Below are positions 2,853 through 38,209 of a stretch of 42,771 nt of DNA, piece after piece. This DNA is from a virus (taxonomy: Duplodnaviria > Caudoviricetes): positions 1 to 42,771 of the IMG/VR virus record IMGVR_UViG_3300044820_000025. One strand, 5' to 3'. The position numbers and the translations under genes were made by a program. The notes below the pieces were generated by a model that was not told where the DNA came from, made no database searches, and saw nothing but the letters and a program-made list of their open reading frames with translations. Each line of letters starts with the position of its first letter. Position 1 is the first letter of the stretch.

Positions 2853-2924
2853 CGTTTAGGACAATTCGTCCTTAGACGCAAGGCCAATCTGTCCTTAGAC
2901 GGCAAAAAAAGTTTAGGACATACT
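2853..2924. promoter_or_regulatory. OR-like switch: operators and divergent promoters
   Basis: Operators AGGAC-AATTC-GTCCT (2858-2872), AGGCC-AATCT-GTCCT (2881-2895), half site at 2915. Leftward TTGCGT-N17-TAAACG (2881-2853). Rightward TAGACG-N17-CATACT (2896-2924). Confidence 0.75.
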
Positions 2925-2930
2925 GCCGGG

Positions 2931-3245
2931 ATGGCCGATCAAGAGACGGAAGCTGAGTTCAAACAAAGGTTTATGCAGCGCGTGAAAGCCGCGCGGGCGG
3001 CGCTTGGCTGGAAGCAATGGCAGATGGCTGACGCCCTCGGCATGTCCCAGGACAAGTATAAGACATATGAAGTCCGAACCTACCTGCCCCACCACCTAAT
3101 CGGCCGGTTCTGCCTTATAACAAGGGTGGACCCGGAATGGCTGGTGACGGGCCGGGGAGAAAAGCCGCTGCAGCCGGTCAAGCTTGTCGAGCAAGAGGAA
3201 GCTGAGCACCCGCCTAAAAAGGCGAAAACAAGGAAGGTCGCATGA
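2931..3245 (+). CDS. cI: CI-like XRE family repressor (HTH only, no S24 peptidase domain)
   Basis: RVKAARAALGWKQWQMADALGMSQDKYKTYE...VDPEWLVTGRG. Confidence 0.85.
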   Translation: MADQETEAEFKQRFMQRVKAARAALGWKQWQMADALGMSQDKYKTYEVRTYLPHHLIGRFCLITRVDPEWLVTGRGEKPLQPVKLVEQEEAEHPPKKAKTRKVA

Positions 3246-3571
3246 GACGCGCAATTTTAGCTCTGCCTCTGTTTATAGTGTTGGGCGGGTGTGCCGGGTC
3301 TGTCTTGGGAGATGCCATTGCCGGCCCAGAGGCGGTAGCCGAGCGGGAGGACTCTTACTGCCGCTCGATCGGCCTGCAGTTTGGCACTCCTGAATATGCG
3401 AGCTGTCGGATGCAGACGACGCAGGGGCGGCAAGCCAGGCACCAAATGGCTATCCAAGGGGCTGCGGCGAATATGCAGCGCTCCATAGACGCCAGTAGGC
3501 CCGTCCAGATGGCGCCTCGAACCTGTAACAGCTCTGTCATAGGGAATCAGGTTCAAACGAATTGCTACTGA
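3242..3571 (+). CDS. Lipoprotein co-transcribed with the repressor (possible superinfection exclusion)
   Basis: MRRAILALPLFIVLGGC signal with lipobox; ATGA-coupled to cI; followed by a terminator. Confidence 0.75.
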   Translation: MRRAILALPLFIVLGGCAGSVLGDAIAGPEAVAEREDSYCRSIGLQFGTPEYASCRMQTTQGRQARHQMAIQGAAANMQRSIDASRPVQMAPRTCNSSVIGNQVQTNCY

Positions 3572-3593
3572 CATCTTTTTATCCCACTAAACA

Positions 3594-3623
3594 AGCCCGC
3601 CCTTGCCCGGCGGGTTTTTCTTT
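3594..3623 (+). terminator. Rho-independent terminator
   Basis: GCCCGCC-loop-GGCGGGT followed by TTTTCTTT. Confidence 0.8.
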
Positions 3624-3670
3624 GCCCGCTCGATTCGGTCCCAGGCGTCCTCAAAACTATTTTTAACAGA

Positions 3671-3714
3671 AGGACGTTTTGTCCTTGACGACGAGGACGA
3701 ATTGTCCTTAGATG
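3671..3714 (+). promoter_or_regulatory. OL/pL-like repressor-controlled promoter of the accessory arm
   Basis: Perfect operators AGGAC-N5-GTCCT at 3671-3685 and 3694-3708 (23-bp spacing, as at OR), overlapping TTGACG at 3685-3690. Confidence 0.8.
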
Positions 3715-3738: not shown

Positions 3739-3999
3739 ATGACCAACTGGACCTCGCTTAAAACTGTAGACAGCGATTTTGTCTTTGCCACCACGCACAG
3801 CCTCCGCCTGTCGGACACGTGGTCGTGGGTTTCCGAAGCGGTAGCGGAAAAGTTCGACACCTACCCCGATCTTCTCGACCTCGAAGAAGACGAGGACGGC
3901 CGCGAGTTTGTTGCAGAGAGCGGCAAGCGGTTAGCTGAGATCCACAACTGCCGCATGGTCAATGCGCCCCGTGCGCTTCTGCAGATGGCGGCGGAGTAG
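3739..3999 (+). CDS. Hypothetical protein
   Basis: ORF after the pL-like promoter; ends in LQMAAE. Confidence 0.7.
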   Translation: MTNWTSLKTVDSDFVFATTHSLRLSDTWSWVSEAVAEKFDTYPDLLDLEEDEDGREFVAESGKRLAEIHNCRMVNAPRALLQMAAE

Positions 4000-4003
4000 T
4001 GTG

Positions 4004-4219
4004 ATGGCTCGCAACAAGAAGATCGAAAGCTGGGATGACGAGCGATCGATCGGCAACTCCCTCATCGTCGCACTGAAGCCGGGCTTTGCATTTGCGGCGA
4101 ATGGTAGCGACGCAGCAGAGCACGTCTACGGGTTCGACACTGTGCGGGAAGCGAACGCTGGCGTCCGCGATGCCGCCCCCTGCGATTGCGATATTTGCAC
4201 CGGGAAGGCGCGGTCATGA
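4004..4219 (+). CDS. Hypothetical protein
   Basis: GGAG RBS; C-terminal CxCxxC. Confidence 0.7.
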   Translation: MARNKKIESWDDERSIGNSLIVALKPGFAFAANGSDAAEHVYGFDTVREANAGVRDAAPCDCDICTGKARS

Positions 4220-4470
4220 ACACTCAGCAGCAAGCCGACCGCCTACTTGCCCAGTGGCAAGCCGAGCGCGCGATGGGGATCAAGCCGGAAGACCGGCTTC
4301 GTCAGGACAACCGATCCGAGAAAGAGTGGTGGGATCAGCTACTCGCCGTTGACCGAGAGATGTCGCTGGATGAGGCGATCGACAATGCCGAGCGCGTTGG
4401 CGTGAAGTGGGCTTGGCAGGCTGATGAGCTGAACCTGATCGACCTTCACCAGAGCGAAGCCGCAGAGTAG
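4216..4470 (+). CDS. Hypothetical protein
   Basis: ATGA-coupled ORF. Confidence 0.65.
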   Translation: MNTQQQADRLLAQWQAERAMGIKPEDRLRQDNRSEKEWWDQLLAVDREMSLDEAIDNAERVGVKWAWQADELNLIDLHQSEAAE

Positions 4471-4500
4471 CGCTCACAATCTCATGACCGAGGAACCGCT

Positions 4501-4707
4501 ATGAATGAGCAATTCGATGGCCTGAACTACCTTATACAGTACCGCCAAAAGGCGGACGGCGTGAAGTGGCACAACATGGCCGCGTTCGACGTCTTGGGAG
4601 CGGCTGAAAGCTACTTGAAAAAACAGGACCGCGACGAAGATTGGATCTGGGAATACCGGATGGTCGATCTGGAAGACGGCAATGTCACCATTCTAGCGCC
4701 GGCATAG
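4501..4707 (+). CDS. Hypothetical protein flanked by junction motifs
   Basis: 68 aa; GAGG RBS lies inside the motif at 4478. Confidence 0.75.
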   Translation: MNEQFDGLNYLIQYRQKADGVKWHNMAAFDVLGAAESYLKKQDRDEDWIWEYRMVDLEDGNVTILAPA

Positions 4708-4761
4708 CCCCGCGCTCATCTTGAGGGACGGCAACACCGCAATATTTTGTAGGGGATTCCA

Positions 4762-5133
4762 ATGGACGCACAATTGAAAGCGAAGTGGGTTGAGGCGCTG
4801 CGGAGCGGTGAGTATCAACAAACGAAAAGCTACCTTCATGACATAGACGGATATTGTTGCCTTGGCGTCCTTTGCGACGTTTCCGGCGAAGGGCATTGGG
4901 TGATGGGCGGAAGTGTTTTCCGATTTCATCATGGCGAAGATGATGTGGCCGGCTTCCTTCCAACCGATCTTGCTCTGAGAACTGGTGTTGGAGCGTTCGA
5001 AATGAGGCTTTCGAACATGAACGATAACGGCAACGACTTCTCCATTATAGCCGACTACATCGAAGCAAATATCCCGGCCGACACTGTTTCGCTCACGTCA
5101 GCAGACCGCGCAACTGTGGGAGGCAAGAAGTGA
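4762..5133 (+). CDS. Conserved phage hypothetical protein (KWVEALRSGEYQQ...YCCLGVLC)
   Basis: Recognisable widespread phage motif; AGGGG RBS. Confidence 0.8.
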   Translation: MDAQLKAKWVEALRSGEYQQTKSYLHDIDGYCCLGVLCDVSGEGHWVMGGSVFRFHHGEDDVAGFLPTDLALRTGVGAFEMRLSNMNDNGNDFSIIADYIEANIPADTVSLTSADRATVGGKK

Positions 5134-5348
5134 AACTGACAGACGCGCAGGTCGCCACGCTCCGCGAGATGGCAAATTATGAGGCCTACTTCTTCAGGCA
5201 GGCAACAAGCCGGACCCTGGTGGCCCTTGGTTTGGCGGAGCCTTGCTACGAAGGCCGCTCAAAGAAACAGGTCAAGCGACCGCCGCACCGCATCACCGAC
5301 GCCGGCCGCGCCGCTCTTGCCGAACAGAAGGACCGCACCAATGGGTGA
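5130..5348 (+). CDS. Small winged-helix-like hypothetical protein
   Basis: KLTDAQ...LVALGLA...RITDAGRAAL. Confidence 0.7.
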   Translation: MKLTDAQVATLREMANYEAYFFRQATSRTLVALGLAEPCYEGRSKKQVKRPPHRITDAGRAALAEQKDRTNG

Positions 5349-6267
5349 AGCCAAGCGCTACCAGAGTTGCCCGTTCTGCGGAGCGACGCCACATCACGGC
5401 CTCGGCAAGGTCTATCGTGACCAGCTACGCGGCGAGCCGCTGCAGGACTTCAGCATCAAATGCCCTCATGGGCACGCGAAGATAACCCGCCCGAGCGAGG
5501 CGTTGGCGCGCGCAGAATGGAACACTCGCGATCCTGCCCAACCACCCCTGGGCCGCGACGAAATTGCGGAAATCATCAAAGACACCATAAGTGTTGATGT
5601 TGATTTCGAAGGTGCCGATGTCATCGTTGACGCCAGCAAATCCGCCGACGAAATCTGCGCTAGGCTCGCCGCCCTCCGCGCGCCAGAGGCGGCCGACGCG
5701 GGGGCTGTGGCGTGGCAATATCGTTTCTTTTGCGAAGATCACTGGACGCAATGGTTCGATTGCAGCGAGGAGTTTTTTGATAGGATCATCCGTACCGGAA
5801 TGTCGGGCTACTATAAGGCCGAGGCCTGCCCTCTCTACGCCTCCCCCTCCGACGCCGGGATGCGCGAGCGGGCGGCTATCATCGAGGAGTGCGCAAAGAT
5901 CGCAGAGACGTATGTCCCATTCGGCAAGTTGAAGCACGAGGGCACTAAAGCTGGCATCGCCGCCGCGATCCGCGCCCTCTCCGCGCCGGTAGCCGGGGCA
6001 GACGCCGGGATGCGCGCCGGCCTCTATCTCGATGACAACGACACCGGATGGCTATGCGCCGAAGTGGTCGGCAAGGTCATCGTCGCCAAGGCCGACGACT
6101 GCACGGCGGTTTCCAAAGATCTGTTCGAGCAGTGGGGGTGGCGCGTCACATCGACAGAGTCGGCCGACTCTGAGAGAGCCGGAGACGGCTTACGGCGCCG
6201 CTTCGCGGCGGCAATGCGGGAAGATGGGGCCGCAGAGATCACATCGACTGAGCGAGGCACCCCATGA
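5341..6267 (+). CDS. Modular accessory protein with an N-terminal Lar-like zinc finger and Ead/Ea22-type modules
   Basis: CPFCG...C...A..EWNTR; VAWQYR; IEECAKIAE...AAAIRAL; internal direct repeats. Confidence 0.7.
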   Translation: MGEAKRYQSCPFCGATPHHGLGKVYRDQLRGEPLQDFSIKCPHGHAKITRPSEALARAEWNTRDPAQPPLGRDEIAEIIKDTISVDVDFEGADVIVDASKSADEICARLAALRAPEAADAGAVAWQYRFFCEDHWTQWFDCSEEFFDRIIRTGMSGYYKAEACPLYASPSDAGMRERAAIIEECAKIAETYVPFGKLKHEGTKAGIAAAIRALSAPVAGADAGMRAGLYLDDNDTGWLCAEVVGKVIVAKADDCTAVSKDLFEQWGWRVTSTESADSERAGDGLRRRFAAAMREDGAAEITSTERGTP

Positions 6268-6671
6268 AGTACGAAACAGCACGCACGGCAATTCAGGAAG
6301 AGCGCGCTAGGCAGATTTCCGTTGAGGGATGGACTCCGGAGCACGACGACCAACACGGCGATGGCGAGATGCTGAGCGCCGCTATCGCCTATTACATGAA
6401 CGGGGTCGGTCGTCCGATCTCGCTCCGACCTGGCGACGGCGCCCCATTGGGTTGGCCGTGGGATGCTGAATGGTGGAAGCCAAATACTCCAGAGCGCGAC
6501 CTAGCGCGCGCCGGAGCGCTGTGCATGGCGGAGATCGACCGGCTGCGGCGAATCAAGGGCAGCAACGTCGAGCATGTCCAAGTAAAGCTACGAATGGTCA
6601 TTGCTGCTCTAGATGCACTTGCGGTCTCCCCTCACAAATGCGGTACCGCTACGGGTGGGGGTGCCGAGTGA
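6264..6671 (+). CDS. Conserved phage protein (ERARQISVEGWTPEHDDQH...WPW..EWWKP)
   Basis: Widespread lambdoid accessory domain. Confidence 0.8.
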   Translation: MKYETARTAIQEERARQISVEGWTPEHDDQHGDGEMLSAAIAYYMNGVGRPISLRPGDGAPLGWPWDAEWWKPNTPERDLARAGALCMAEIDRLRRIKGSNVEHVQVKLRMVIAALDALAVSPHKCGTATGGGAE

Positions 6672-7111
6672 TGATAGCACCATGCACCGTGAAGGCCGCG
6701 AAGGCGCAGGTTCGCCAGTGGCATCGCCATCTGAAGGATGTTCAGGGCGGGCTGTTCGCAGCGCAGATCGTTGACGCCGAGGGCAACTGTCGCGGCGTCG
6801 CTATCGCCGGCAACCCAGCTCGCGTCTGGCAAGGTCAGGCCAAGCTCGTCATTTCACGGGTAGCCACTGACGGCGCCGAGAACGCTTGCTCTGCCCTGTA
6901 CGGCTCACTCTGCCGGGCCGCGAAGGCGCTCGGCTATCGTGAAGTCTGGACCTACACGCTGCCGCACGAGCCGGGTACGTCGCTGCGAGCTGCAGGCTTT
7001 ATCGATATGGGCATGAGCCGAGGCGGTGAGCACGATCGCCCGTCACGCGCCCGTAAGCCTGCCAAAAATGCCGAACCGAAACGCCGCTGGCTCAGGAGGC
7101 TCGCATCATGA
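6671..7111 (+). CDS. XF1762-family protein (Mom-related GNAT-like fold)
   Basis: WHRH, GVAIAGNP, RVATDGAENACSALYG, ALGY..VWTYTL..EPGTSLRAAGF. Confidence 0.7.
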   Translation: MIAPCTVKAAKAQVRQWHRHLKDVQGGLFAAQIVDAEGNCRGVAIAGNPARVWQGQAKLVISRVATDGAENACSALYGSLCRAAKALGYREVWTYTLPHEPGTSLRAAGFIDMGMSRGGEHDRPSRARKPAKNAEPKRRWLRRLAS

Positions 7112-7326
7112 AGGGCGATATCCGCTGCTTTGAAGGATATCTATGGCGTCACGACCCACAGTTAGATGACCCGGAGTTAGAGACGCGCGTGGGCGATTGC
7201 CCTGAGTGCGACGGCCTTGGCTGCGATGAGATTGAACGGCGCGCCGCTGCTGCAAAAGATGTGACCACCCTTTCGGTCACGCGCCATGACGACCAGGCCG
7301 CTACCGATAGAGGTGCTAAGTCATGA
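7108..7326 (+). CDS. Hypothetical protein with CxxCxGxG
   Basis: ATGA-coupled; GGAGG RBS. Confidence 0.65.
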   Translation: MKGDIRCFEGYLWRHDPQLDDPELETRVGDCPECDGLGCDEIERRAAAAKDVTTLSVTRHDDQAATDRGAKS

Positions 7327-8060
7327 ACCGCACCCTTATCTGGTGGTCCACAGGCGCAGCTAGCGCCGTAATGGCTTCTCTGCTCCTCGCAGAACAGCCA
7401 GACGCAATTGTCGTTCGCTGCGAGACTGGCAACGAAGACCCGGACAACTATCGGTTTGAAGCCGATGTCATGCGGCGACTCAACACGTCCGTCACGCTCT
7501 TGAAGTCTGATGAGTTCGAGAACGTCAGGGATGTGTGGAAGCGCGAGCGATACATGGCCGGCATCAACGGCGCATCATGTACGCGCGCCATGAAGGTCGA
7601 ACCTCGCCTAGCATTCCAGCATCCGACTGACCGTCATGCCTTCGGGTACACTGCCGACAAGCCGGACATGGAGCGGTTCGCCCGGCTGAAGCATAACTAC
7701 CCGGAGCTGGACGTTCGGGCACCCTTGATTGAGCAAGGAATAGACAAGGCCAACTGCCTGGGGATCGTCCAGCGTTGGGGCATCGACCTCCCGCGCTCCT
7801 ACGCCATGGGCTTCCCGAACGCCAATTGCCTGCAGAGCGGCTGCGTCAAAGGCGGCCTCGGCTACTGGGCACGGTATCGCCACTACTTTCCCGAGGAGTT
7901 CGCCGCTACGGCTGCCCAGGCCCGCGAGATCGGGGCGAAGCTCGTGAAGCACAAAGGCAAGCGAATCTTCATTGATGAGATCCCGGCTAATTATCCGATG
8001 ACGGATGCAATTGTCCCGGCGTGCGATTTCCTTTGCTCAGCCATGGAGGCAGCAGAATGA
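7323..8060 (+). CDS. PAPS-reductase-like / adenine nucleotide alpha-hydrolase (PP-loop) protein
   Basis: WWSTGAASAV PP-loop variant; CT..MK; NANC..GCVKGG.GYW; C-terminal CDFLC. Confidence 0.75.
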   Translation: MNRTLIWWSTGAASAVMASLLLAEQPDAIVVRCETGNEDPDNYRFEADVMRRLNTSVTLLKSDEFENVRDVWKRERYMAGINGASCTRAMKVEPRLAFQHPTDRHAFGYTADKPDMERFARLKHNYPELDVRAPLIEQGIDKANCLGIVQRWGIDLPRSYAMGFPNANCLQSGCVKGGLGYWARYRHYFPEEFAATAAQAREIGAKLVKHKGKRIFIDEIPANYPMTDAIVPACDFLCSAMEAAE

Positions 8061-8464
8061 AGTGCTACCTTGCCCACCCTGTCACTGATTACGGCGGCAG
8101 CGCTCGCCAATTGGCGGCCGTGACAGCCATCAACGCCATCGGCTGGGAGGTCGAAAACCCTGACCACTCCATGCACCAGGAAGCATACCGCCAGCATGGA
8201 ATGCAGCATTTCCTAGACGTGGTGGAGGACTGTGATGCACTGGCCTTCCTGCGCTTCCCCGACGGCTATATCGGGGCGGGCGTGGCGAAAGAGATCGAAT
8301 GCGCGCTGCGGCGTGGCCTGGACGTGTTCGACGTCAGCGAAGGCCACCTTGAGCCGGTCGATATGATGCCGGAACAACTGCTCACCGTAGAGCAGACGCG
8401 GGCCAAGATTTCGCACTTGATGGCATCCACGGTCGCTCCGCACCATGGTGAGCCCCATGGCTGA
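8057..8464 (+). CDS. Nucleoside 2-deoxyribosyltransferase-like protein
   Basis: YLAHP, ENP, CDALAF, GAGVAKEIECA motifs. Confidence 0.6.
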   Translation: MKCYLAHPVTDYGGSARQLAAVTAINAIGWEVENPDHSMHQEAYRQHGMQHFLDVVEDCDALAFLRFPDGYIGAGVAKEIECALRRGLDVFDVSEGHLEPVDMMPEQLLTVEQTRAKISHLMASTVAPHHGEPHG

Positions 8465-8765
8465 ACCGACCCTCTACGTCACCGAAGGCGAGATCGTGAA
8501 GCGCATGGGCGTCGGCATGAAGAACGGACGCAAAGCCGTTCAGAAGATGCGCCTGCATCCAAATTTCCCGCCCAAAACAATCGCCGGCAAGCGGTATTGG
8601 CCTGCCGTTCGCGACTTCCTTGAAATCTGGAACAACCGTAGCATCGCCGCCACCGGCAATTCGGCCGGCCAGGAGACCGAAAATGGAACGACCTCACATT
8701 CCGGACGCGCCCGGCCTAGCTTGGCGCGCGCGAAAGAGCGGCTGGGCCTGCCTGTGGGTGGCTAG
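8457..8765 (+). CDS. xis: Excisionase-like winged-helix protein
   Basis: FPPKTIAGKRYWPAVRDFL; overlaps the integrase start. Confidence 0.65.
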   Translation: MAEPTLYVTEGEIVKRMGVGMKNGRKAVQKMRLHPNFPPKTIAGKRYWPAVRDFLEIWNNRSIAATGNSAGQETENGTTSHSGRARPSLARAKERLGLPVGG

Positions 8766-9909
8766 GCAGGATATCGTCAAGGCGGGCTTCCGGCCCTCTA
8801 CGGCGCAGTTGATGGTGCTGACGGCACCGCCGACGCCAGAGCAGGAACGATCGATCCGAGCAAGCTGCGTCAGGCTGCAGGAGGAGATGTACGAGTTCGG
8901 CCACGTCCAGCCAAAGGTGTTCGGCGGGACCGTGCGCGACCTCATCAATGCCTACCAGACCGACAAGGATTCAGCCTACCAGACCATGCGCTACCGCGGC
9001 CGGGTCGACATCGACAATTCGCTGAAGCGGATCGATGCGAAATACGGCAAGCTGAAGCTGGCCGATCTCGGCGCCCGCGACTTCAAGCACTGGTACGAGG
9101 ATCTGCGCTGGCCGGACGGTGCCGGCGGCCGGGAAACCCGCACCATGGCGCACTCCATCATGACGGTAGTCCGTATGATGTTCACCTTCGGCAAGCTCTT
9201 TAAGATCGATCCGGCATGCGCCAGATTGAAGGAGGAGCTTTCCGAGATCCAGTTCTCCAAGGGGTCGAAGCGCACCGAGGTGCTTACCCTGCGGCAGTGC
9301 GAGGACATCATGGCGGTCGCGCATGCCGATGGCGTGCACTCGCTGGCCCTCGCTCAGGCGATCCAGCGGAACCTTGGCCTGCGGCAGCGTGACGTGATCG
9401 GAGAATGGGTTCCAGTAGCCGAGCCTGGCGTGTCCGACGTCATGCACCACGGCCTGAAATGGCTGCGTGGAATCCGCTGGGAGGAGATCAGCAGCAACTT
9501 CATCCTCGAGCATCGCATGTCGAAGTCCCGCACCGGCAAGGTGCTGAAATTCGACCTGAAGCAATACCCGATGGTGATGACCGAGCTGCTGAAGATCCCC
9601 GAGGCCGATCGCGTCGGCGCCGTGGTGAAGTCGGAGAACACCGGCCGGCCCTGGAAGCAGAGCAACTTCCTGCAACGCTGGCGCCAACTGGCGATCAAGG
9701 CCGGCGTTCCCAAGACGGTTCGCAACATGGACAGCCGCGCCGGCGCCATTACCGAGGTCATCCGCGCAACCGGCGACGTCGATGCTGCCCGCATCATGGC
9801 CGGCCACTCCGAGACCAAGACCACGCTCGGCTACAGCCGGGAAGACCTCGAGCGCAACAACGAGACGGCTGTGATTGTTGCGGATTTCCGCGCCAAAAAC
9901 AGAGCGTGA
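8683..9909 (+). CDS. int: Tyrosine recombinase (phage integrase)
   Basis: Catalytic residues GLRQRD, K (SKSRTGK), MDSR in place of HxxR, GHS...TTLGY. Confidence 0.9.
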   Translation: MERPHIPDAPGLAWRARKSGWACLWVARQDIVKAGFRPSTAQLMVLTAPPTPEQERSIRASCVRLQEEMYEFGHVQPKVFGGTVRDLINAYQTDKDSAYQTMRYRGRVDIDNSLKRIDAKYGKLKLADLGARDFKHWYEDLRWPDGAGGRETRTMAHSIMTVVRMMFTFGKLFKIDPACARLKEELSEIQFSKGSKRTEVLTLRQCEDIMAVAHADGVHSLALAQAIQRNLGLRQRDVIGEWVPVAEPGVSDVMHHGLKWLRGIRWEEISSNFILEHRMSKSRTGKVLKFDLKQYPMVMTELLKIPEADRVGAVVKSENTGRPWKQSNFLQRWRQLAIKAGVPKTVRNMDSRAGAITEVIRATGDVDAARIMAGHSETKTTLGYSREDLERNNETAVIVADFRAKNRA

Positions 9910-10020
9910 ACTGACTATTGAACTATAATGAACTTGTGATAGCTAAGGGCCAGTAAAGTCTAAGGAATTTTTCTAATGCCGCTGATGCGCCGTCTGTGGC
10001 AACTCCTTGATTTTACTGTC
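9907..10020. other. Probable attP region
   Basis: AT-rich non-coding gap after int with TGAACT repeats at 9907, 9919 and 9929; core not identified. Confidence 0.5.
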
Positions 10021-10058
10021 CCTAGTTCTCACCCAGAGAGCAACAAAGGGGTCCAGTT

Positions 10059-10286
10059 ATGGCAAGCAATTCCGAGATCAGCGAACTAATCAAAGGGCTG
10101 ATCGCGCGCCGCAATCATCCAGACGTCGGCGCATCTTCGCCCGAAGGCCGGCGCATCTCGACGCTCATCGAGCAGTTGGAGAACGGCGCCCCGAGCGCGC
10201 AGACCATCAAAGAGATTGAGCAGATCCGGCGCGATGGCGGCCAGTACGTGCACGAGCACCACGATCATTCCAAGGGAGCGATGTGA
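10059..10286 (+). CDS. Hypothetical protein
   Basis: 75-aa ORF with AGGGG RBS. Confidence 0.65.
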   Translation: MASNSEISELIKGLIARRNHPDVGASSPEGRRISTLIEQLENGAPSAQTIKEIEQIRRDGGQYVHEHHDHSKGAM

Positions 10287-10540
10287 TGGCTAAATTCCGC
10301 AAGAAACCGGTTGTGGTCGAAGCCTACTGCTACGATCAGAAGCCGAAGAACTACCGCCCAGACTGGCTGACTGCGGCCATCATAGCAGAGAAAGTCACGA
10401 CGTTTCCAGAGTTCTGCAACATCTGGACGCTTGAAGGCACAATGCGGTGTGACCTTGGTGACTGGATCATCCAAGGCGTGCATGGAGAGCTGTATCCATG
10501 CAAGCCAGACATCTTCGCCGCAACGTATGAACCAGCTTAG
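10283..10540 (+). CDS. Widespread small phage protein (KFRKKPVVVEA...TLEG...GDWII.G..GE.YPCKPDIF..TYE)
   Basis: Highly recognisable conserved motif. Confidence 0.85.
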   Translation: MMAKFRKKPVVVEAYCYDQKPKNYRPDWLTAAIIAEKVTTFPEFCNIWTLEGTMRCDLGDWIIQGVHGELYPCKPDIFAATYEPA

Positions 10541-10560
10541 TAATTGAGAGGCGGAAGACC

Positions 10561-10779
10561 ATGGAGCCAGCTGAATATATGCGCCAAGCGTTGCTTCTTT
10601 TTGCCAAAGACCCGCCAGACGACGATTACCAGCGTGGGTATCATGAAGCACTGAAGGTCTTTGCGAACGAGGGGCTTGGTTTCAAGTGGGATGACCCGCT
10701 GCTTTGGGGCAAAGCAGATCCCGCCCCAGAAGTTCGTCAGAAGCCGAAGTTTGCCGTTATTAATGGCGGCAAGGACTGA
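10561..10779 (+). CDS. Hypothetical protein (DPPDDDYQRGY)
   Basis: 72-aa ORF with GAGG RBS. Confidence 0.7.
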   Translation: MEPAEYMRQALLLFAKDPPDDDYQRGYHEALKVFANEGLGFKWDDPLLWGKADPAPEVRQKPKFAVINGGKD

Positions 10780-10812
10780 CCCGCTCCGCTCGCATGACCG
10801 AGGATGTACGAC

Positions 10813-10974
10813 ATGAAGTGGCAAATAATCGATACAGCACCTAGGGATGGCACGCGCGTAAAGCTGCTGTGCATCCTTGGCGAGGACTTCGGGTTCTTCG
10901 ACACGGAGTGGTCAACTGAAAACGGGCGCGGAGAGCCATTGCTTTGGGCGCCAGCGAACGGAGACGCAACATGA
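10813..10974 (+). CDS. DUF551-like small protein (MKWQIIDTAPRDGT..., 53 aa)
   Basis: Translated by hand; WQ.I.TAP.DG motif. Confidence 0.7.
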   Translation: MKWQIIDTAPRDGTRVKLLCILGEDFGFFDTEWSTENGRGEPLLWAPANGDAT

Positions 10975-11306
10975 TCGACGACGCGCGCCTAGCCGAGGCC
11001 ATCAAGAAGATGCGCAAGCTACGGCTGGTTGACAGTATCCCAATCAAGGATGCCGGCCCGCCTGCGAAACCGTTCTTAGCTGTGATGAAGCAAGGGCTTG
11101 GCGGCGTATACGATGACGCGGCGCTGGAATATATTTTCCGCCGGTTTCTCGTGTATTACGATGGCGCAGGCAAAACGATTCAACCCGGTGCTGAAGCAGA
11201 GCCAGCGACCAGCCAAGCCGTTCATGGCGGTGAAGCTGTAGGCCGAACAGGCGGTTCGATTCCGCCGACCGGGGCCACCACCACGCTCACTTCGAAGGAA
11301 GGATGA
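10971..11306 (+). CDS. Hypothetical protein whose 3' part reads through a tRNA-like element
   Basis: ATGA-coupled start; C-terminal GGSIPPTGA is the translation of a T-arm. Confidence 0.6.
   Translation: MIDDARLAEAIKKMRKLRLVDSIPIKDAGPPAKPFLAVMKQGLGGVYDDAALEYIFRRFLVYYDGAGKTIQPGAEAEPATSQAVHGGEAVGRTGGSIPPTGATTTLTSKEG
11184..11277 (+). ncRNA. tRNA-like element or degenerate tRNA (possible CAT anticodon)
   Basis: CCCGGT pairs with ACCGGG, followed by G-CCA; perfect T-arm GGCGG-TTCGATT-CCGCC (11250-11266); GCCG-TTCATGG-CGGT arm; D-arm non-canonical. Confidence 0.5.
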
Positions 11307-11309
11307 ACT

Positions 11310-11516
11310 ATGAATACGACGACATACCAGCAATTCAAGGACAACCTTAGTGAGAAATTCTGCGCCGTGGTCAATGGCGTTGGAGGCTTAATTAGCAGCG
11401 GATGCGGAGACTTGGAGATCAAGCGATCGGATGATGGCTCTATCTACCTCAGCAAGCGCGCTGCGGCCCTCCTGACGGGGCTTCTCCAAGATGACACTCC
11501 CGTGGTCTTGGAATAG
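11310..11516 (+). CDS. Hypothetical protein
   Basis: 68 aa, bounded by motifs at 11283 and 11502. Confidence 0.65.
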   Translation: MNTTTYQQFKDNLSEKFCAVVNGVGGLISSGCGDLEIKRSDDGSIYLSKRAAALLTGLLQDDTPVVLE

Positions 11517-11528
11517 GAGGGATAGGAT

Positions 11529-11750
11529 ATGACGCCAGCGCCAACAAAATGCCCGTGCTGCGATGGGCGCATCACCCTTCACGTTCCCGAGTCTAGCAAA
11601 GACTACGAGGCGTGGGAGTTTGATTGCGGAGCGGAACTCATTCGTCTCGAAAATGGCAATCTAACCTACGAGACTGGGTGCTCTGAAGTGATGGCACGCG
11701 CCATTCGAGCCATGAACAGCATCGTGACCACCACACTCGTCACGAAATAA
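11529..11750 (+). CDS. Zinc-ribbon hypothetical protein
   Basis: CPCC...F.CG; strong AGGAGG RBS. Confidence 0.7.
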   Translation: MTPAPTKCPCCDGRITLHVPESSKDYEAWEFDCGAELIRLENGNLTYETGCSEVMARAIRAMNSIVTTTLVTK

Positions 11751-11764
11751 AGGGCTAAACAGCC

Positions 11765-11986
11765 ATGCAAATAACTGAGTTCACCCGCAACGCCCTGGCA
11801 ATTCGCCGCCAGATGCGAGACCTGCACGATAAGGGTTATGAGCGGATCTCGTGCGCCCACGGCATCGGGAATCTTTGGGAGTTAGATCGTGGATACCGTT
11901 ACCAGTGCAAAATAGTAGATGCTGTGATTGGCTTTGACGGAAAGTCGGTTTTTGTCAAAGTTGAGGCCCCCGCGGTCTCGGAATAG
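11765..11986 (+). CDS. Hypothetical protein
   Basis: 73-aa ORF; stop codon lies inside the motif at 11972. Confidence 0.7.
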   Translation: MQITEFTRNALAIRRQMRDLHDKGYERISCAHGIGNLWELDRGYRYQCKIVDAVIGFDGKSVFVKVEAPAVSE

Positions 11987-11998
11987 GAGGGCTTCACT

Positions 11999-12409
11999 GT
12001 GAATCAGAACGAACGCATAAGCGCAATTCTTTCCTGTAAACATCGCAGCAACATCCCGCACCCTAATCATCCTGGGAAGCGTCTGGTCGGATGGATTGTT
12101 GACGAGGATGTGGCGGGGTTGTCTGACTCTCTATTCGCCCTTGAAGAGATCGAGCGGCTTGCCACAAAACTTCCCACCAAAGACGAGCGCCAAGCTTTGG
12201 CAACGATGGTCTATGAGGCTATCCGGTTCTGTGATTGGGCTGCAGGCGAAGGGTTTACACCTGCCCCTGGCGAACCTGCGATTGACCCGGCGGAGTTGCT
12301 AACTGATTACGTCAACGCCATTGATGGCGACGAATACGAGGGATTGGCCGAGGCAGCGCGCGAATGGATAATGACCACGCCAGCGGTCTCGAATGGAGAG
12401 CGCAAATGA
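11999..12409 (+). CDS. Hypothetical protein
   Basis: GTG start with AGGAGG RBS. Confidence 0.7.
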   Translation: MNQNERISAILSCKHRSNIPHPNHPGKRLVGWIVDEDVAGLSDSLFALEEIERLATKLPTKDERQALATMVYEAIRFCDWAAGEGFTPAPGEPAIDPAELLTDYVNAIDGDEYEGLAEAAREWIMTTPAVSNGERK

Positions 12410-12651
12410 CGTTGAATGAATTGCGCGCGTGGCGTGATCGCCAGGCCGAAAAATCGGCAGAGCCGAAGTTTATGGGCAAGCCGGAATCGTGGTATGAAGA
12501 CCGCCACTGGTTTTGTACCAACGGGCATGTCTCTGGCTACATTCTACGGTGCGACGAGGACGGGGATCGGTGCCTTGCTTGCCGGGCGCCCGTATTGCTC
12601 GGGCCAGCCATCGGAGAAAAAGACTTCGCGCTGATACTTCAGCACTCATAA
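12406..12651 (+). CDS. Cys/His-rich hypothetical protein
   Basis: C.NGH...C...CLAC; ATGA-coupled. Confidence 0.7.
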   Translation: MTLNELRAWRDRQAEKSAEPKFMGKPESWYEDRHWFCTNGHVSGYILRCDEDGDRCLACRAPVLLGPAIGEKDFALILQHS

Positions 12652-12666
12652 CCGGAGAACGCGACA

Positions 12667-12828
12667 ATGGTTGAATGGAAAGCTCGCCTTAAGCAGGACG
12701 GATCGATAGTCGCCCGCGCATATGCCCCGACCAGGGAACAGGTCGAGCGAGAAATAAGGCATTATGCTATGATGTACGCTCAAGATGGACCGGTAGAGGT
12801 GGAGATTATCCCACCCCGCCGTTCATGA
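12667..12828 (+). CDS. Small hypothetical protein (53 aa, ...REIRHYAMMYAQDGPV...)
   Basis: Translated by hand; GGAG RBS; bounded by motifs at 12642 and 12819. Confidence 0.7.
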   Translation: MVEWKARLKQDGSIVARAYAPTREQVEREIRHYAMMYAQDGPVEVEIIPPRRS

Positions 12829-12845
12829 CCGAGGAAGGAAACACC

Positions 12846-13175
12846 GTGAACTTCAATCCAGTAGCCGACCTCTGGGAACTTGATAGCCTTGACCACGATC
12901 TCGTCATGGACGGCTATCTGTCGGCTGAGCGAGGCGACCCCGAGCCTGGTCCAAATCGCGGGAAGTCATACTGGCATGGGTGGCGGTGCAGAATGATGGA
13001 TTACGGGATCATTCCGATCGATGATGTCCACCGGAAGCTCACGCGGGATTATCTTGCTCAGCAGAGGGAGGCTTTGCAGGAGCATGCGCGTGAGGCCAAC
13101 AAGGTTGCCGCCAAGAATGGCGCGACCATCCACCCACGCGTAGCCGCCATCAAGGCAGGGCGTCATCGCTCATGA
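12846..13175 (+). CDS. Hypothetical protein (GY...G.PEPGPNR..SYWHGW)
   Basis: GTG start after GGAAGGA RBS; alternative ATG at 12825. Confidence 0.7.
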   Translation: MNFNPVADLWELDSLDHDLVMDGYLSAERGDPEPGPNRGKSYWHGWRCRMMDYGIIPIDDVHRKLTRDYLAQQREALQEHAREANKVAAKNGATIHPRVAAIKAGRHRS

Positions 13176-13226
13176 GCAGGGAACACCCATGACGCGCTTG
13201 TACACTCCACTCGGCATATAACGCTC

Positions 13227-13724: not shown

Positions 13725-13752
13725 CTGCTGATCTCGGATTGTGAGGCTGACA

Positions 13753-14439
13753 ATGGGTGGATTTAAAGACATGACCGGCCTTAGGTTCGGCCGTTTAGTA
13801 GTGGACAGCTACGTCGATTCCGTCCGGCCGTCCGGGTTGCCTGGACCGGCAAAATGGCTGTGCTTTTGTGACTGTGGGGGCCGCGTAGTGACCCGTGGCG
13901 ACTGCTTACGCGGCGGGCAAGTGAGCTGTGGCTGTTTGACTAGAGAAGTGACAAGCGCGAGGGTAAAAGCGGCCCCTCCGCGCCTGAAACATGGAGGCTC
14001 ATCTGGCGGGAAAAGTGATGAGTACAAGATTTGGTCTGGGATAGTCCGCAGATGTGAGAACGTAAACTCACGAGCCTATAAGAACTATGGCGGCAGAGGC
14101 ATTGGTATATGCGACCGATGGCGCAACGGAAACGGGGGTCGTAGTGGGTACGAGCTATTCCTAGCCGATGTTGGGCCTCGACCATCGCGCAACCATTCGA
14201 TAGACCGCATCGACGTAGATAAGGGCTACCATCCCGGTAACGTAAGGTGGGCGGACTGGCATACGCAAATGCGGAATACCCGAAAAACTAGATACGTGGA
14301 ATATGATGGACAAAAGCTTGCAGCATCTGAGGCTGCGCAAAAATACGGCGTGCCCTATGCATCGTTACTGCAAAGACTGAACGCGGGATGGTCCGCTGAG
14401 CGCGCTTTAAAGCAGCCGATTAGGCTGTTAAAGATATAG
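13753..14439 (+). CDS. HNH homing endonuclease-like protein, inverted relative to its neighbours
   Basis: G.RFGRL.V, W.C.CDCG, SCGC, YGGRGI..C.RW, SIDRID...GY.PGNVRWA. Confidence 0.85.
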   Translation: MGGFKDMTGLRFGRLVVDSYVDSVRPSGLPGPAKWLCFCDCGGRVVTRGDCLRGGQVSCGCLTREVTSARVKAAPPRLKHGGSSGGKSDEYKIWSGIVRRCENVNSRAYKNYGGRGIGICDRWRNGNGGRSGYELFLADVGPRPSRNHSIDRIDVDKGYHPGNVRWADWHTQMRNTRKTRYVEYDGQKLAASEAAQKYGVPYASLLQRLNAGWSAERALKQPIRLLKI

Positions 14440-33993: not shown

Positions 33994-35544
33994 CTATGCG
34001 CCCATCCATCCAGCGGCACGGCGGCGCTCACGAAGGCGCTCCGTCTGTTCATGCACCGGCTCGGCAAAGGTCAAGGCAATAGCGTCCCAATCATCCGGAG
34101 ACCGAATACCGCGATTGCGCATGTGCTCTTTGCTTTCAAGTAATAGGCGCTGGTTCACGTCATACGAGTAACCAGGCCCACAGGCATCAGCCTGCAAACT
34201 GTCAGAATCCGGGATGTCGGCACCACCCGGCTCATTCAGCCAATCTCTCGATCGGCTCCACATCTCTGCCCGCCTATTGCGCGGCCCTGCCGACTTAGTC
34301 CCATCTGGCAGAATGATCGTTGGCTCTTGCGGCTCCGACCCGAAATTGATCGGCGTCACCGTCTCCAGGTAAACGCCACCCCAGCTATGCAGGATGTCCA
34401 CCACGCCAGCGCCAACGCCGCCGACGTCAACGAAGACCCGAGCCGGCTTGTCAGCGTCAATAACCTGCTTGATCCAGTTGGCGCCTTCCACGACACTTGT
34501 CTTGCCCCGGCTTTCCGTCTTGGAAACCTGCCGTCCTCGACGCCATGCCAGCGAGAACTTGTCGTCTCCAAACCGCGCCGGATCGGCACCGATTACCAGG
34601 GGCCCGATGCCATCGCAGGTGTTCTTGCGAGCGGCCAACACGGCTTCCGATCGAATGAAGCTGTCATGGCCTGTTAGCTGGAATGCCTCCTGAGCTGTCG
34701 CCGGGTATTCCTGCTTGAACAACAGCGGGTCTTTCAACTCCGCAATCTTCGCGCGGCGCCACACCATCTGTTCCAGGCGTAGACCATGAGCATCAGCATA
34801 AGCCTGCTCCTCTTCGTCCATCTTGAAGTCTGGAGGAGCCGGCCGGCTGTACTCATCCTGCCAATACCACGGAATGAAGATAGCCTCGTAATCTCCTATG
34901 CCAGACTCTGCCTGCTGCCAGCGCTCGTGAAACTCGCCACCCATGCCGTTGGCTGTGGACTCCAGCAATATCTCGGTTCCCGGCAAATCCGGGATGGCCT
35001 GGACAACGCCTGCAAAGTGCGTCTTCGCATTAGGCCAGAAAGCCACCTCAGAGCCGTGAAAGAGCTGGACTGTCTGTGACCGCCCCGTTGCCTTGGCACC
35101 GGCTGTGCCGACCGCGTAGCCACTCTCAAGCGCCTCGAAACTCAACTCCTTGGCGTTCGCCGCACCTGTCACCGGCTTAACAAGATCAGGACAATGCGTG
35201 TGATAGCGCTCCACCATCCCAAACAGGTTATTCGTCGCATCCTGCTCGTGCGTCAGGATGAAAACCCGAACGCCCTTGGTGTGGCTGGCTCTCCAGTAGA
35301 ACCTTCCGCCAATGTAAGTGGAAACGCCCTGCTGCCGCCCCTTCAGGACCAGCGCACGGACCTTGCCAGTTTTAGCCCTCTGCTCCTCGAGCTTGCCGTG
35401 TAAGTAGATCTGCGCCTGGTTAAGGGTTAGCGGTTCGATCTTGCCCGACTTGGATCTGATCCGCATGCACTTCGCAGCATAGTGCTGGAAGTCGTCACGC
35501 AGTCTCTTCCGTATCGTCCGTTCCCTGCTCGACATCGAGCTCAT
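33994..35544 (-). CDS. terL: Terminase large subunit
   Basis: LKGRQQGVST (Walker A), FHGSEVAFW (Walker B), ESTANG, GADPA..G.D, RSPD..DA. Confidence 0.95.
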   Translation of the reverse strand: MSSMSSRERTIRKRLRDDFQHYAAKCMRIRSKSGKIEPLTLNQAQIYLHGKLEEQRAKTGKVRALVLKGRQQGVSTYIGGRFYWRASHTKGVRVFILTHEQDATNNLFGMVERYHTHCPDLVKPVTGAANAKELSFEALESGYAVGTAGAKATGRSQTVQLFHGSEVAFWPNAKTHFAGVVQAIPDLPGTEILLESTANGMGGEFHERWQQAESGIGDYEAIFIPWYWQDEYSRPAPPDFKMDEEEQAYADAHGLRLEQMVWRRAKIAELKDPLLFKQEYPATAQEAFQLTGHDSFIRSEAVLAARKNTCDGIGPLVIGADPARFGDDKFSLAWRRGRQVSKTESRGKTSVVEGANWIKQVIDADKPARVFVDVGGVGAGVVDILHSWGGVYLETVTPINFGSEPQEPTIILPDGTKSAGPRNRRAEMWSRSRDWLNEPGGADIPDSDSLQADACGPGYSYDVNQRLLLESKEHMRNRGIRSPDDWDAIALTFAEPVHEQTERLRERRRAAGWMGA

Positions 35545-35788
35545 TCAAAGCATCCTCGTGGGAAACGGCCAAGCTGCCGGACATCTCCACTGCCTGAGCG
35601 GGCTTGCCATCCAACCGATCTGCGATTTCCCGGATTGCGGGAAGCCCATCAGCGCCCGCCGCGATATCCAGCAATTTGCGGGCAAGTCCGCGCAAGGCAC
35701 GCGGATTGTCATCGCCCAACGCCGCCAATTCCATCCGCAATGCATCGCGGAACGGCTTGTCTCTCTGCTGTCCTCTGGGATTAGCCAT
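35495..35788 (-). CDS. terS: Terminase small subunit
   Basis: NP.G...KPFRDAL...AIREIADRLDGKP.Q; directly upstream of terL. Confidence 0.8.
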   Translation of the reverse strand: MANPRGQQRDKPFRDALRMELAALGDDNPRALRGLARKLLDIAAGADGLPAIREIADRLDGKPAQAVEMSGSLAVSHEDALNELDVEQGTDDTEETA

Positions 35789-35847
35789 TTGTACGCTTAA
35801 GTTCTTGTTCCATTATTCATAACCAAACCGCTGAGCGGGCTTGCCAA

Positions 35848-36054
35848 TTACTGCAAAACCGGCACGCAGACGGTCACAACCGACCTGTCCGCCTTATGGA
35901 TTACCGCCCGGGCTTCCTTGCACTTTGCTTCTTCGGGATATGATGCAATCAGCGTCCCGGCATTCGTCTTGACCGACATTACCCAAATTACCTTTGCATC
36001 ATCCGCAAAAGCTGGGCTTGCGAGCAGGAGCGAAGCGGCCAGGATATATCGCAT
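35848..36054 (-). CDS. Small secreted protein
   Basis: MRYILAASLLLASPAFA signal peptide; two Cys residues. Confidence 0.7.
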   Translation of the reverse strand: MRYILAASLLLASPAFADDAKVIWVMSVKTNAGTLIASYPEEAKCKEARAVIHKADRSVVTVCVPVLQ

Positions 36055-36540
36055 TAGTCTAGCTTCCCGAAATTCAGGCGATGGTATTCGGTCTCGCGAT
36101 AGTAGGCGTTCACAGCAAACCCTCGCAATTCGGACATCTGGCTGTCTGTTTTCGGCAAGCAGGAGGCTTGATCCTGACTCTTTGCCGGGGCCTCAAACAT
36201 GCCCCAATGCGAGATCGATACCATCTTCATCTATTGCGCTCCAGATAAACGAGGAACCCGGCCAAGCGACAAGCGCCATAGTCCCCACGAGGTCAACCAT
36301 CACGCGCTATCCTGATCAGGCGCGCAATACTCGCTAGGCGCCGTATCGATCACCCGGTCATGCGGGATAATCGCCACATTGGAGATCTCCGTCGCTACCT
36401 GGTTGGCGAAATCGCTATACATCCGCTCCATGTCGCGCTTGTTCTGAAAATCCCGGATCTGGATGATAGTTGCGGTCAAAAGCACCTCCCAGCAAAAATC
36501 AGAATGAACGCCAGAACGTAATATGCGGCAACGTAACCCA

Positions 36541-37154: not shown

Positions 37155-37697
37155 CTATTTCGGACCATGAGTGATTTGCAGCCCCGGGTCAATGCCGAAA
37201 TACTCAACAAGGTTATTTAGTCCACAGATAAGCACAGATAACTCGTGGGAGCTTGGTACCGGCTTATCAAATACCGCATAGTCCCTAACTGCTACCTGCA
37301 GCTTGCGGTGCCCGCATTTGATGTAGGCGCGGTCATATCGAATACCTAGCGCCTTTGCTGTCTCATCAGGCATGCCGACACCAGCGCCCTTTCCTATCCG
37401 TCCCCAGTCCATCGCGGCTGGCGTGGGTGATGGCGCTTGGAGGGCCGAGCGATACCTTGCAGCTAGTTCGGCGTACACTTTGCCAGCCTCGTGCTGCGCT
37501 GGCGTGACGTGGCCCAAAAGTAGCAGGCGCCCGAACTCCGACTCAGCCTCCTGGAGGCCGCGAAACTTAACCGGCACAACAACCCGGTGAGGTTGGTCCA
37601 TTACCTGCTGCTTTGGATCCACGTAGGTTCGCTGCGCCCGACCATTAGGCTCTCGCTGGACGCCAACTTTACGTTTCCTGCCGGCACGAGCCATCAC
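37155..37697 (-). CDS. Q-position late transcription regulator (probable antiterminator)
   Basis: Last early gene; GRL...G.VT..Q..AG..Y and L..GL..L..YF motifs; followed by promoter and terminator. Confidence 0.55.
   Translation of the reverse strand: MMARAGRKRKVGVQREPNGRAQRTYVDPKQQVMDQPHRVVVPVKFRGLQEAESEFGRLLLLGHVTPAQHEAGKVYAELAARYRSALQAPSPTPAAMDWGRIGKGAGVGMPDETAKALGIRYDRAYIKCGHRKLQVAVRDYAVFDKPVPSSHELSVLICGLNNLVEYFGIDPGLQITHGPK
37164..37192 (-). promoter_or_regulatory. pR'-like late promoter
   Basis: TTGACC-N17-CATGGT within the 3' end of the Q-position gene. Confidence 0.55.
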
Positions 37698-38209
37698 GAA
37701 GCCCTCGCAAATTCACCAAATACGTCCTTAGCGCGGGCTGCATATGCGGCGCTCGCCTCCTCGGCAGTCGCAAAAATTCCAATATATTTATATTTCCCGT
37801 TAAACCTTATTTCCGCCAGATACGGCTTTTTCTTACAGTTTATTCGGCGCACCCCTTTTATCCCAAGTGAATTATTCACCTTTGCGCGCTGGTTAGCCTG
37901 GTTGGTTGAATTTGTCGCTAACCGTAAGTTCTCCCACTTCCCGTTTCCCCTATCCATGTCGATATGATCGACAAACACTGGCGGCCACGATCCCGTCATA
38001 TAGAACCAAGCTAGTCTTGAAGACGGGAATCCCCTCCAACCTATTTTGACCCTTAGGTATCCGTCCTTATCTACATATCCAGCGGAGTCGCCCACACGAG
38101 CGGAGCCACGGTCTTTGACCCATGTCCATACCCCCGTGCTTGGATCGTAGTGCAAGTAAGATTTGAGCGCCTGAACGGATAGTTCGCTCTCTCGATTAAT
38201 TCTGATCAC
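37694..38209 (-). CDS. HNH endonuclease with a C-terminal AP2 domain
   Basis: L.YDP.TG.W, RLAW.YM.G.WP...VDH.D.D..N..W.NLR.AT...N..N, G.KGV, IG.F.T.EEA. Confidence 0.9.
   Translation of the reverse strand: MIRINRESELSVQALKSYLHYDPSTGVWTWVKDRGSARVGDSAGYVDKDGYLRVKIGWRGFPSSRLAWFYMTGSWPPVFVDHIDMDRGNGKWENLRLATNSTNQANQRAKVNNSLGIKGVRRINCKKKPYLAEIRFNGKYKYIGIFATAEEASAAYAARAKDVFGEFARAS

Follow-up and report, generated by a model that had tools for sequence, protein, structure and literature searches.

The stretch of DNA considered here is the complete virus record IMGVR_UViG_3300044820_000025, 42,771 bases long, and the whole of it is called the window. It belongs to a P22-like temperate phage of alphaproteobacteria. 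Portal, coat and scaffold genes lie on its minus strand, and a GapR-like gene indicates the alphaproteobacterial host. The plus strand carries small accessory genes on both sides of int, the gene of a tyrosine integrase (Int, 8683-9909) whose closest named homologues come from Tardiphaga. The Bradyrhizobium phage ppBjS10J-1 has small genes on either side of int in the same layout. At the junctions between these genes stands a short palindromic site. The motif is real, and it likely marks a platform for site-specific gene exchange.

The junction site and its seven-base core

The refined junction site is CGNTS-n-[7 bp]-n-SANCG, which is 19 bp long and dyad-symmetric. Its positions are numbered 0-18, the bases at positions 6-12 are called the core, and the arms are scored out of 8. 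When each arm was selected on the opposite arm, the logos read C-G-N-T-S and S-A-N-C-G. A sequence-only reading of the window had described the element as a 21-base palindrome with a variable spacer, and all 16 of the copies that it listed lie where it placed them. Three further copies had been taken for left halves only. Because positions 4 and 14 are C or G, those at 6622 (6/8) and 8430 (7/8) count as full sites, and their cores recur elsewhere; the third, at 11737, is indeed degenerate (2/8).

The arm definition began from that earlier window motif, so the enrichment figures in the window are partly circular: on the plus-strand arm, sites of at least 7/8 number 18 in 1564 junction positions and 21 in 6793 gene-interior positions (P = 8e-5), and a site with a spacer of 9 is found at 16/25 gene ends, compared with 3-8/25 for spacers of 6-8 and 10-12 and 9/40 for minus-strand ends. 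The test in relatives is free of this circularity. For it, 240 loci around Int homologues were fetched, and 205/241 were left after de-duplication. Genes were called by a script, whose calls agreed closely, by eye, with the annotation of ppBjS10J-1. The expectation was computed from position-specific frequencies of the left and right arms, which takes up both Shine-Dalgarno sequences and codon phase. This choice of background matters. Plain spacer counts are swamped by codon periodicity and a comparison with the minus strand by composition, while expectation-maximisation with a global background drifted onto the stop codon.

Among 1765 integrase-strand gene ends of related loci, CG.TC-N9-GA.[CG]G was seen 39 times against 15.5 expected, and only at spacer 9. 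In the de-duplicated and stricter set of 1521 such ends from related viral loci, a relaxed motif is in excess in all three registers: read-through (34 against 13.4 expected), with the stop codon in the spacer (9 against 1.0), and non-coding after the stop (9 against 3.0). Spacers other than 9 give no excess in the same 1521 ends, and the motif is likewise not in excess on the opposite strand (600 ends) or in genome loci (2368 ends). An excess restricted to spacer 9 and to the integrase arm, yet present in three registers, indicates that the junction site is a DNA signal. The arms show no excess of Watson-Crick covariation in 9 position pairs tested in 95 sites, which agrees with the earlier view that the site is DNA recognised by a protein rather than an RNA hairpin.

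At least two sites with recurrent cores occur on the integrase strand in 35/76 viral loci of at least 8 kb and on the other strand in 0/76; the same viral loci supplied the core catalogue, and those that are related count as only partly independent. The phages NV1.1.1 (30 of 64 kb), Mwe-JY08 and MinM1 (23 of 43 kb) have at most one recurrent-core site per strand. No motif excess was found in 59 distinct further Bradyrhizobium-genus stretches around Int homologues, mostly non-phage elements, and a leader-specific pattern scan of viral contigs gave zero matches. L244/G459 has its seed site alone, maybe a chance match, and is not counted among the arrays without Int.

The earlier description of the spacer as variable does not stand, for its central seven bases are a recurring address code and not free sequence. 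Among 21,430 pairs of sites with unrelated flanks, 89 have an identical 7-mer at positions 6-12, compared with 3.0 expected. If the seven-base window is moved by one base either way, the count drops to 29 and 41. With pattern-selected loci removed there are 101 same-core pairs against 4.1 expected (28,091 pairs), and 56 against 3.6 once the commonest core is removed as well. The other strand yields one such pair (0.25 expected). The edges of this identity are hard: of 637 same-core pairs, 412 have zero further identical bases on the left and 412 have zero on the right. In read-through pairs the wobble bases within the core are kept (56/94 and 53/94, against 28 and 25 expected), while position 5 (27 against 24) and wobble base 13 (29 against 25) are at baseline. 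The same cores also turn up in different reading frames, so core sharing cannot stem from a peptide motif. Of the 19 cores in the window, other phages have 15/19 at junction sites of their own, with a chance of 0.146 for each, and 11/19 are found in the strict catalogue (chance 0.014).

The addresses also keep their place across distantly related alphaproteobacterial phages. Of the pairs with a common core, 517 have both sites on one side of int and 46 have them on opposite sides, and the order of cores between arrays is concordant in 345 pairs and discordant in 20. After attP, the phage attachment site that follows int, the series runs GGCAAGG, TCAGTAG, CGAATGG, TGACCGA, TGAGCAG, TAAGCGA, TGGGCAA. 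In 20 phages, 93 pairs from this seven-core series are in order and 1 is out of order, a ratio that measures consistency, since the order was read from the phages on which it was scored. The cultured phage ppBjS10J-1 carries four cores of the series in order. A Bradyrhizobium-genus prophage in genome G092, found later, has CGAATGG and then TGAGCAG, the predicted order; it is one of 20 pattern-matched Bradyrhizobium-genus loci, of which the other 19 are chance chromosomal matches. The array of the window ends with CGAATGG (12384), a private site (12643), TGACCGA (12820) and TGAGCAG (13167).

The contents of the slots are not conserved along with the addresses. DNA between sites in the 20 phages gave only two blastn hits, and homologous contents were found in 0/36 pairs for the slot CGAATGG-TGACCGA and in 0/28 pairs for TGACCGA-TGAGCAG. 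At 5090 the window and L239 agree in the core, the right arm and the leader to the next gene, and the DNA upstream is unrelated.

Table 1. Features of the window, with the core and arm score of each junction site
Feature	Position	Strand	Core	Arms	Remarks
Operator-like palindromes AGGAC-N5-GTCCT, four	2858, 2881 (one mismatch), 3671, 3694 (span 2858..3708)				around repressor gene
Repressor gene	2931-3245
Pre-integrase arm, accessory genes	3739..8765	+			Mom-like protein, PAPS-reductase-like protein, rest without assigned function
Site	4479..4497	+	TGACCGA	5/8	non-coding, 8 nt past stop; core elsewhere normally after attP
Site	4713..4731	+	TCTTGAG	7/8	non-coding; L239 has core in same order
Site	5090..5108	+	CGTCAGC	8/8	read through by open reading frame (ORF) 4762-5133
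Internal in-frame site	6143..6161	+	CATCGAC	4/8	within ORF 5341-6267; same core as 6236, 93 bp away
Site	6236..6254	+	CATCGAC	7/8	read-through
Site	6622..6640	+	CCCCTCA	6/8	core recurs in strict site of another phage
Site	7274..7292	+	CGCGCCA	6/8	read-through
Site	8430..8448	+	CTCCGCA	7/8	ahead of ORF 8457-8765; L004 has core before same gene position
Putative excisionase (by position)	8457-8765	+			site with core CTCCGCA directly ahead
Tyrosine integrase Int, candidate enzyme	8683..9909	+			residues R234, K281, R352, H375, Y384
attP	9910..9998	+			TGAAC-type direct repeats, then core copying 5' end of host gene
Site-like element	10024..10042	+	CACCCAG	6/8	before first post-attP gene; core not found elsewhere
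Post-attP array, 12 small genes (53-136 amino acids) occupying slots	10059..13175	+			PHROG family match in 2/12
Site	10262..10280	+	TTCCAAG	8/8	core, right arm and ATGTGAT leader common to L239
Site	10782..10800	+	GCTCGCA	8/8	non-coding
Site	11284..11302	+	CTTCGAA	7/8	read-through
Site	11503..11521	+	TGGAATA	6/8	core not found elsewhere
Degenerate site	11737..11755	+	CGAAATA	2/8
Site	11973..11991	+	CGGAATA	7/8
Site	12384..12402	+	CGAATGG	8/8	commonest post-attP address
Site	12643..12661	+	TAACCGG	7/8	stop codon in spacer; core not found elsewhere
Site	12820..12838	+	TGACCGA	7/8	stop in spacer; next address of conserved series
Site	13167..13185	+	TGAGCAG	7/8	stop in spacer; next address of series

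Proposed crossover sites and competing explanations

The ordered sites with their 7-bp code are probably crossover sites of a tyrosine recombinase, at which two phage genomes within the same cell could exchange genes one slot at a time. This proposal starts from direct observations: a dyad, a shared stretch of exactly seven bases that ends abruptly on both sides, an order of cores that is conserved around unrelated genes, and several cases in which genes switch at a core edge. Tyrosine-recombinase sites are characterised by inverted arms and an asymmetric centre, over which partners must be identical (PMC2817482), and from these properties we infer crossover. A broader claim, given even chances, is that any temperate phage of Bradyrhizobium-like hosts, whatever its capsid or integrase, can swap the gene in a numbered slot with another phage through a community-wide, ordered, heterospecific code read by one tyrosine recombinase.

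In this model, the recombinase would bind the degenerate arms, and strand exchange would require the two sites to have identical 7-bp overlaps. A first crossover would join two genomes at matched cores. To resolve the joint molecule, the genomes would cross over again at a different pair of matched cores or recombine homologously in a gene that both carry, and the result would be a mosaic whose joint lies inside a core. Unlike cores within one genome would block the deletion of neighbouring genes. Heterospecific lox sites in engineered cassette exchange prevent deletion likewise. With repeated exchange between matching cores the addresses would stay in order, and new genes probably enter the slots by other, rarer kinds of recombination.

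The position of the site within the gene series suits such a swap. It often holds the stop codon of the upstream gene, or is read through in a fixed frame to an ATGA overlap, and a ribosome site follows the right arm. Translation would therefore survive an exchange, and the incoming gene would keep both its termination and its coupling.

Evidence for exchange at the core can be sought where near-identical phages switch from one gene to another. In two pairs with the same upstream DNA, L168/L196 and L224/L225, identity is lost at position 13, the edge of the core. In two pairs with the same downstream DNA, L216/L231 and L059/L063, identity begins at position 6, the other edge; it starts there too in G428/G434, a pair with weaker arms. 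At the core CTTCTGC lie the edges of two switches, one 3' and one 5'. When the cores of the catalogue were tested against breakpoints, 3' ends gave 3 against 1.6 expected and 5' ends 6 against 1.5. Pairs known only at the protein level, at 55-80% identity, are too diverged for boundaries to be placed. The sequence-only reading had recognised the layout of a tyrosine-recombinase core, and the 7-bp identity with hard edges and the four exact breakpoints agree with it. Breakpoints of relatives within the spacer, for which it proposed to look, are seen in those four pairs; most switch points lie elsewhere.

Several observations weigh against the crossover model. The support for it comes from sequence comparison, and the arms are short and degenerate. 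Only 4/113 distinct sharp boundaries on the integrase arm coincide precisely with the edge of an 8/8 site, and the offsets of that breakpoint test were chosen after those four pairs had been seen. A relaxed version of the test is not significant (3 against 1.8 and 2 against 2.3). Start codons hold 22/113 boundaries, and some of the six 5' switch points at catalogue cores are coincidences with start codons. L018/L196 and L036/L038 retain the entire site and switch just past it. Among 20 listed replacements, none is a complete replacement bounded by two strong sites. One gene family occupies different slots in L014 and L041, two sites of the window itself on opposite sides of int (4479 and 12820) have the same core, and the ratio for the seven-core series is one of consistency. 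Downstream of 149 integrases the site consensus shows no enrichment (32 against 24.7 at best). Since most switch points lie off the core edges, site-specific exchange is to be seen as one route among several.

Another model regards the sites as inherited short linkers for homologous or annealase recombination, comparable to PeSL elements or gene-boundary sequences. The order would then come from an ancestral array whose genes were replaced singly. Descent also predicts conserved order and side of int, and ERF and YqaJ genes are present in related phages. A few of the 637 same-core pairs extend beyond seven bases, by up to 9-10 extra bases, and the many switches at start codons or past the site would fit as well. 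Yet the identity is interrupted at positions 2, 5, 13 and 16 and bounded sharply at 6 and 12, a run of seven bases is short for an annealase, and descent alone leaves the retention of wobble bases inside the core, and not outside it, unaccounted for. This origin is unlikely.

The sequence-only reading preferred an integron-like system, in which Int would excise and capture circular single-gene cassettes and shuffle them. Single genes are indeed bracketed by sites. Moreover, a 93-bp unit lies between the CATCGAC cores at 6143 and 6236, the cores at 11503, 11737 and 11973 are nearly identical, and L249 and L252 each repeat one core. However, 0/91 consecutive strong sites share a core (0.64 expected), and none do so within one mismatch either. 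The order is conserved in the seven-core series (93 against 1), and the arms lack the covariation of folded attC sites. No joints were found in the contigs of one DNA sequencing data set, possibly the source of the window, although contigs cannot exclude rare circles; among the sequencing runs listed as carrying this DNA, none was of RNA. Capture and shuffling of this kind is thus improbable.

An equally doubtful possibility is that the dyad is the site of a regulator or nucleoid protein, or the trace, at the DNA level, of a peptide tag at the C-terminus (L/V-S/T-x-x-E/D-R) together with a ribosome site. Most sites are read through in one frame, with an information peak at second codon positions, and the right arm overlaps Shine-Dalgarno sequences. 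Against a tag stand the excess in the stop-in-spacer and non-coding registers, the occurrence of cores in different frames and the retention of wobble bases within the core; a binding protein would conserve the arms and not an ordered set of spacers. The repressor operator was also considered and rejected as the identity of the junction site, the operators being another palindrome, AGGAC-N5-GTCCT.

Finally, a chance pattern made by codon bias, stop codons and Shine-Dalgarno sequences does describe most matches of genome-wide scans (about 56 of the 60 matches in a generic scan of viral contigs, judged by eye to lie off accessory junctions and excluded from all counts, and 19/20 Bradyrhizobium-genus matches), but for the junction set it is refuted by the strand, spacer or shifted-window control in each test and has a negligible probability.

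Integrase, attachment sites and neighbouring genes

The enzyme is a separate question from the sites. The sequence-only reading named Int or host recombinases for this role. Int keeps the catalytic residues given in Table 1, and among the matches seen it has PHROG 1 and PF00589 only. The attachment sites of its family share the geometry of the junction site. In the window, attP at 9980-9998 is in site register, with core TGCGCCG and arms 6/8, and the attP of L189 is an 8/8 site. Six attP copies of the Int family all differ at position 13 from two integrated junctions. In G092, attL and attR lie 44.7 kb apart and have TGAGGAA in common from position 6, the right arm of attL being outside the sequence read. 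With the attachment cores in site register, the core specificity of the family may be the arm consensus. Many members of the family integrate at tRNA-Gly, -Pro, -Ser, -His and -Leu genes, which have no evident match to the arms.

Other phages do without this family. G460 (100% complete) has cores in order and another tyrosine integrase with no match to the Int-family profile. G461 (98% complete) also has cores in order; the Int-family profile is unmatched there, and a tyrosine or serine recombinase was not detected. Ordered arrays in these two make a recombinase of the host or of a mobile element at least as likely as Int. The first guess is thus a shared host or mobile-element tyrosine recombinase, to which about an even chance is assigned. 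The second guess, only slightly less likely, is that resident phage integrases act on core-only sites. Int itself has the att geometry in its favour and the two near-complete phages against it.

The host gene copied by attP encodes a zinc alcohol dehydrogenase, and L002 and L082 are integrated there. The attP region of the window (9976-10089) restores the first codons and the ribosome site of this gene. After integration, the post-attP array would lie away from the promoter pL and behind the promoter of the host gene, and it may be expressed in the lysogen. Control by pL, as put forward in the sequence-only reading, therefore fits only the genes before attP; the array at 10.0-13.2 kb would be parted from pL by integration.

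Two proviruses and ppBjS10J-1 showed no direct att repeats at their ends. Among GTDB loci (L085-L160), many chromosomal members of the Int family adjoin tRNA-Gly(CCC) in Methylobacterium, Xanthobacter and relatives and have no junction array. In one clade (L009, L018, L030, L168, L190) the palindrome CGTTAATCTTAACG is conserved about 50 nt after int; it is possibly the attP core of that clade or a site for a host factor.

The slots hold genes of varied kinds. They include a Mom-like DNA modification protein (6671-7111) and a PAPS-reductase-like protein (7323-8060), with possible anti-restriction functions. ORF 5341-6267 (308 amino acids, without a family match) resembles a chain of modules. 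The site at 6143 lies in frame within it and repeats the core of 6236, and the 93-bp unit may reflect unequal crossover at matched cores. The sites at 11503, 11737 and 11973 enclose two 73-amino-acid genes, and the stretch 11503-11991 may have grown by tandem accretion at a single address, contrary to the rule of unlike neighbours. In ppBjS10J-1 a tandem duplication spans 34421-36156, where two successive gene pairs have identical ends. Two HNH endonuclease genes are also present in the window, one at 13741-14439 on the plus strand within the minus-strand late region and the other at 37694-38209.

Related systems and significance

The overlap of tyrosine-recombinase partners is 6-8 bp. Tyrosine recombinases need identity in the overlap, and att sites with a 7-bp overlap are on record; the junction sites resemble such att sites in that overlap identity governs the choice of partner (PMC2817482).

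The closest described system is that of the pdif modules of Acinetobacter. These are dif modules bounded by pdif sites on Rep_3/OrfX plasmids (PMC13141974). A pdif site consists of a XerC arm, 6 bp and a XerD arm (PMC13141974), whereas the phage sites have symmetric 5-mer arms and a 7-bp core. In both, spacer identity picks the partner site, which for the phage sites we infer from core sharing and the exact breakpoints. For the pdif modules a cointegrate route has been proposed, which offers a model for the resolution step (PMC13141974). The modules alternate between C and D types, undergo inversions and occur in varied plasmid configurations (PMC13141974). The phage cores, by contrast, have one orientation on the coding strand and a fixed order, reverse-oriented cores not having been searched separately, and unlike pdif sites they are fused with stop codons and ribosome sites.

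An example of a simple site with the same geometry is that of IntA in Rhizobium etli, which is 23 bp long and has the pattern CG.T.-N9-.A.CG (PMC4928290). Like the phage sites, attA and attD have inverted arms and an asymmetric centre, and attA has C, G, T, A, C and G at the same six positions and spacing (PMC4928290). Rhizobia thus have simple-site enzymes of this geometry (PMC4928290). The IntA type uses one or two perfect 23-bp sites for cointegration or integration (PMC4928290), while the phages have about 19 degenerate, differently coded and intergenic ones.

The PeSL elements of T4-type phages are similar in being repeated at the junctions of small unrelated genes, where they are linked to gain, loss and replacement (PMC2839356). 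They are promoter/terminator repeats of about 100 bp that are alike and form mini-circles (PMC2839356); the phage sites are 19 bp long, with unlike cores and a shared block of 7 bp. Promoter-like matches in the window number 6, compared with 4.2 in shuffles, and 0/6 touch a site; one terminator-like match only falls at a site (7261-7280, minus strand). Integrons (IntI, attI, attC) likewise place a tyrosine recombinase beside an array of single, small, co-oriented genes. In the phages, however, there is no folded attC-type hairpin signal, adjacent sites share no core and the order is unshuffled, and the Int of the window matches a phage integrase PHROG and has attP repeats. The comparison that rejects identity with integrons or PeSLs also draws on PMC8138268. 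No description of this junction motif or of ordered address sites in phages was found in the accessible open literature, a search that did not cover subscription journals and supplements.

The mosaicism of phages is usually ascribed either to illegitimate recombination at random, with selection acting on the products, or to short linkers at which homologous recombination takes place. The alternative proposed here is a site-specific, address-coded exchange of accessory genes with defined 19-bp substrates. The address model predicts which sites recombine with which, and ppBjS10J-1 is a cultured carrier of the series. It would also explain why many unrelated hypothetical proteins have oddly similar C-terminal tails: translation would run through a DNA site. 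If the model is true, the accessory arm would be a natural cassette-exchange platform in which the joint itself supplies the stop codon and the ribosome site. If a single enzyme reads 7-bp codes by the dozen, all orthogonal to one another, it would offer a natural tool for multi-site cassette exchange.

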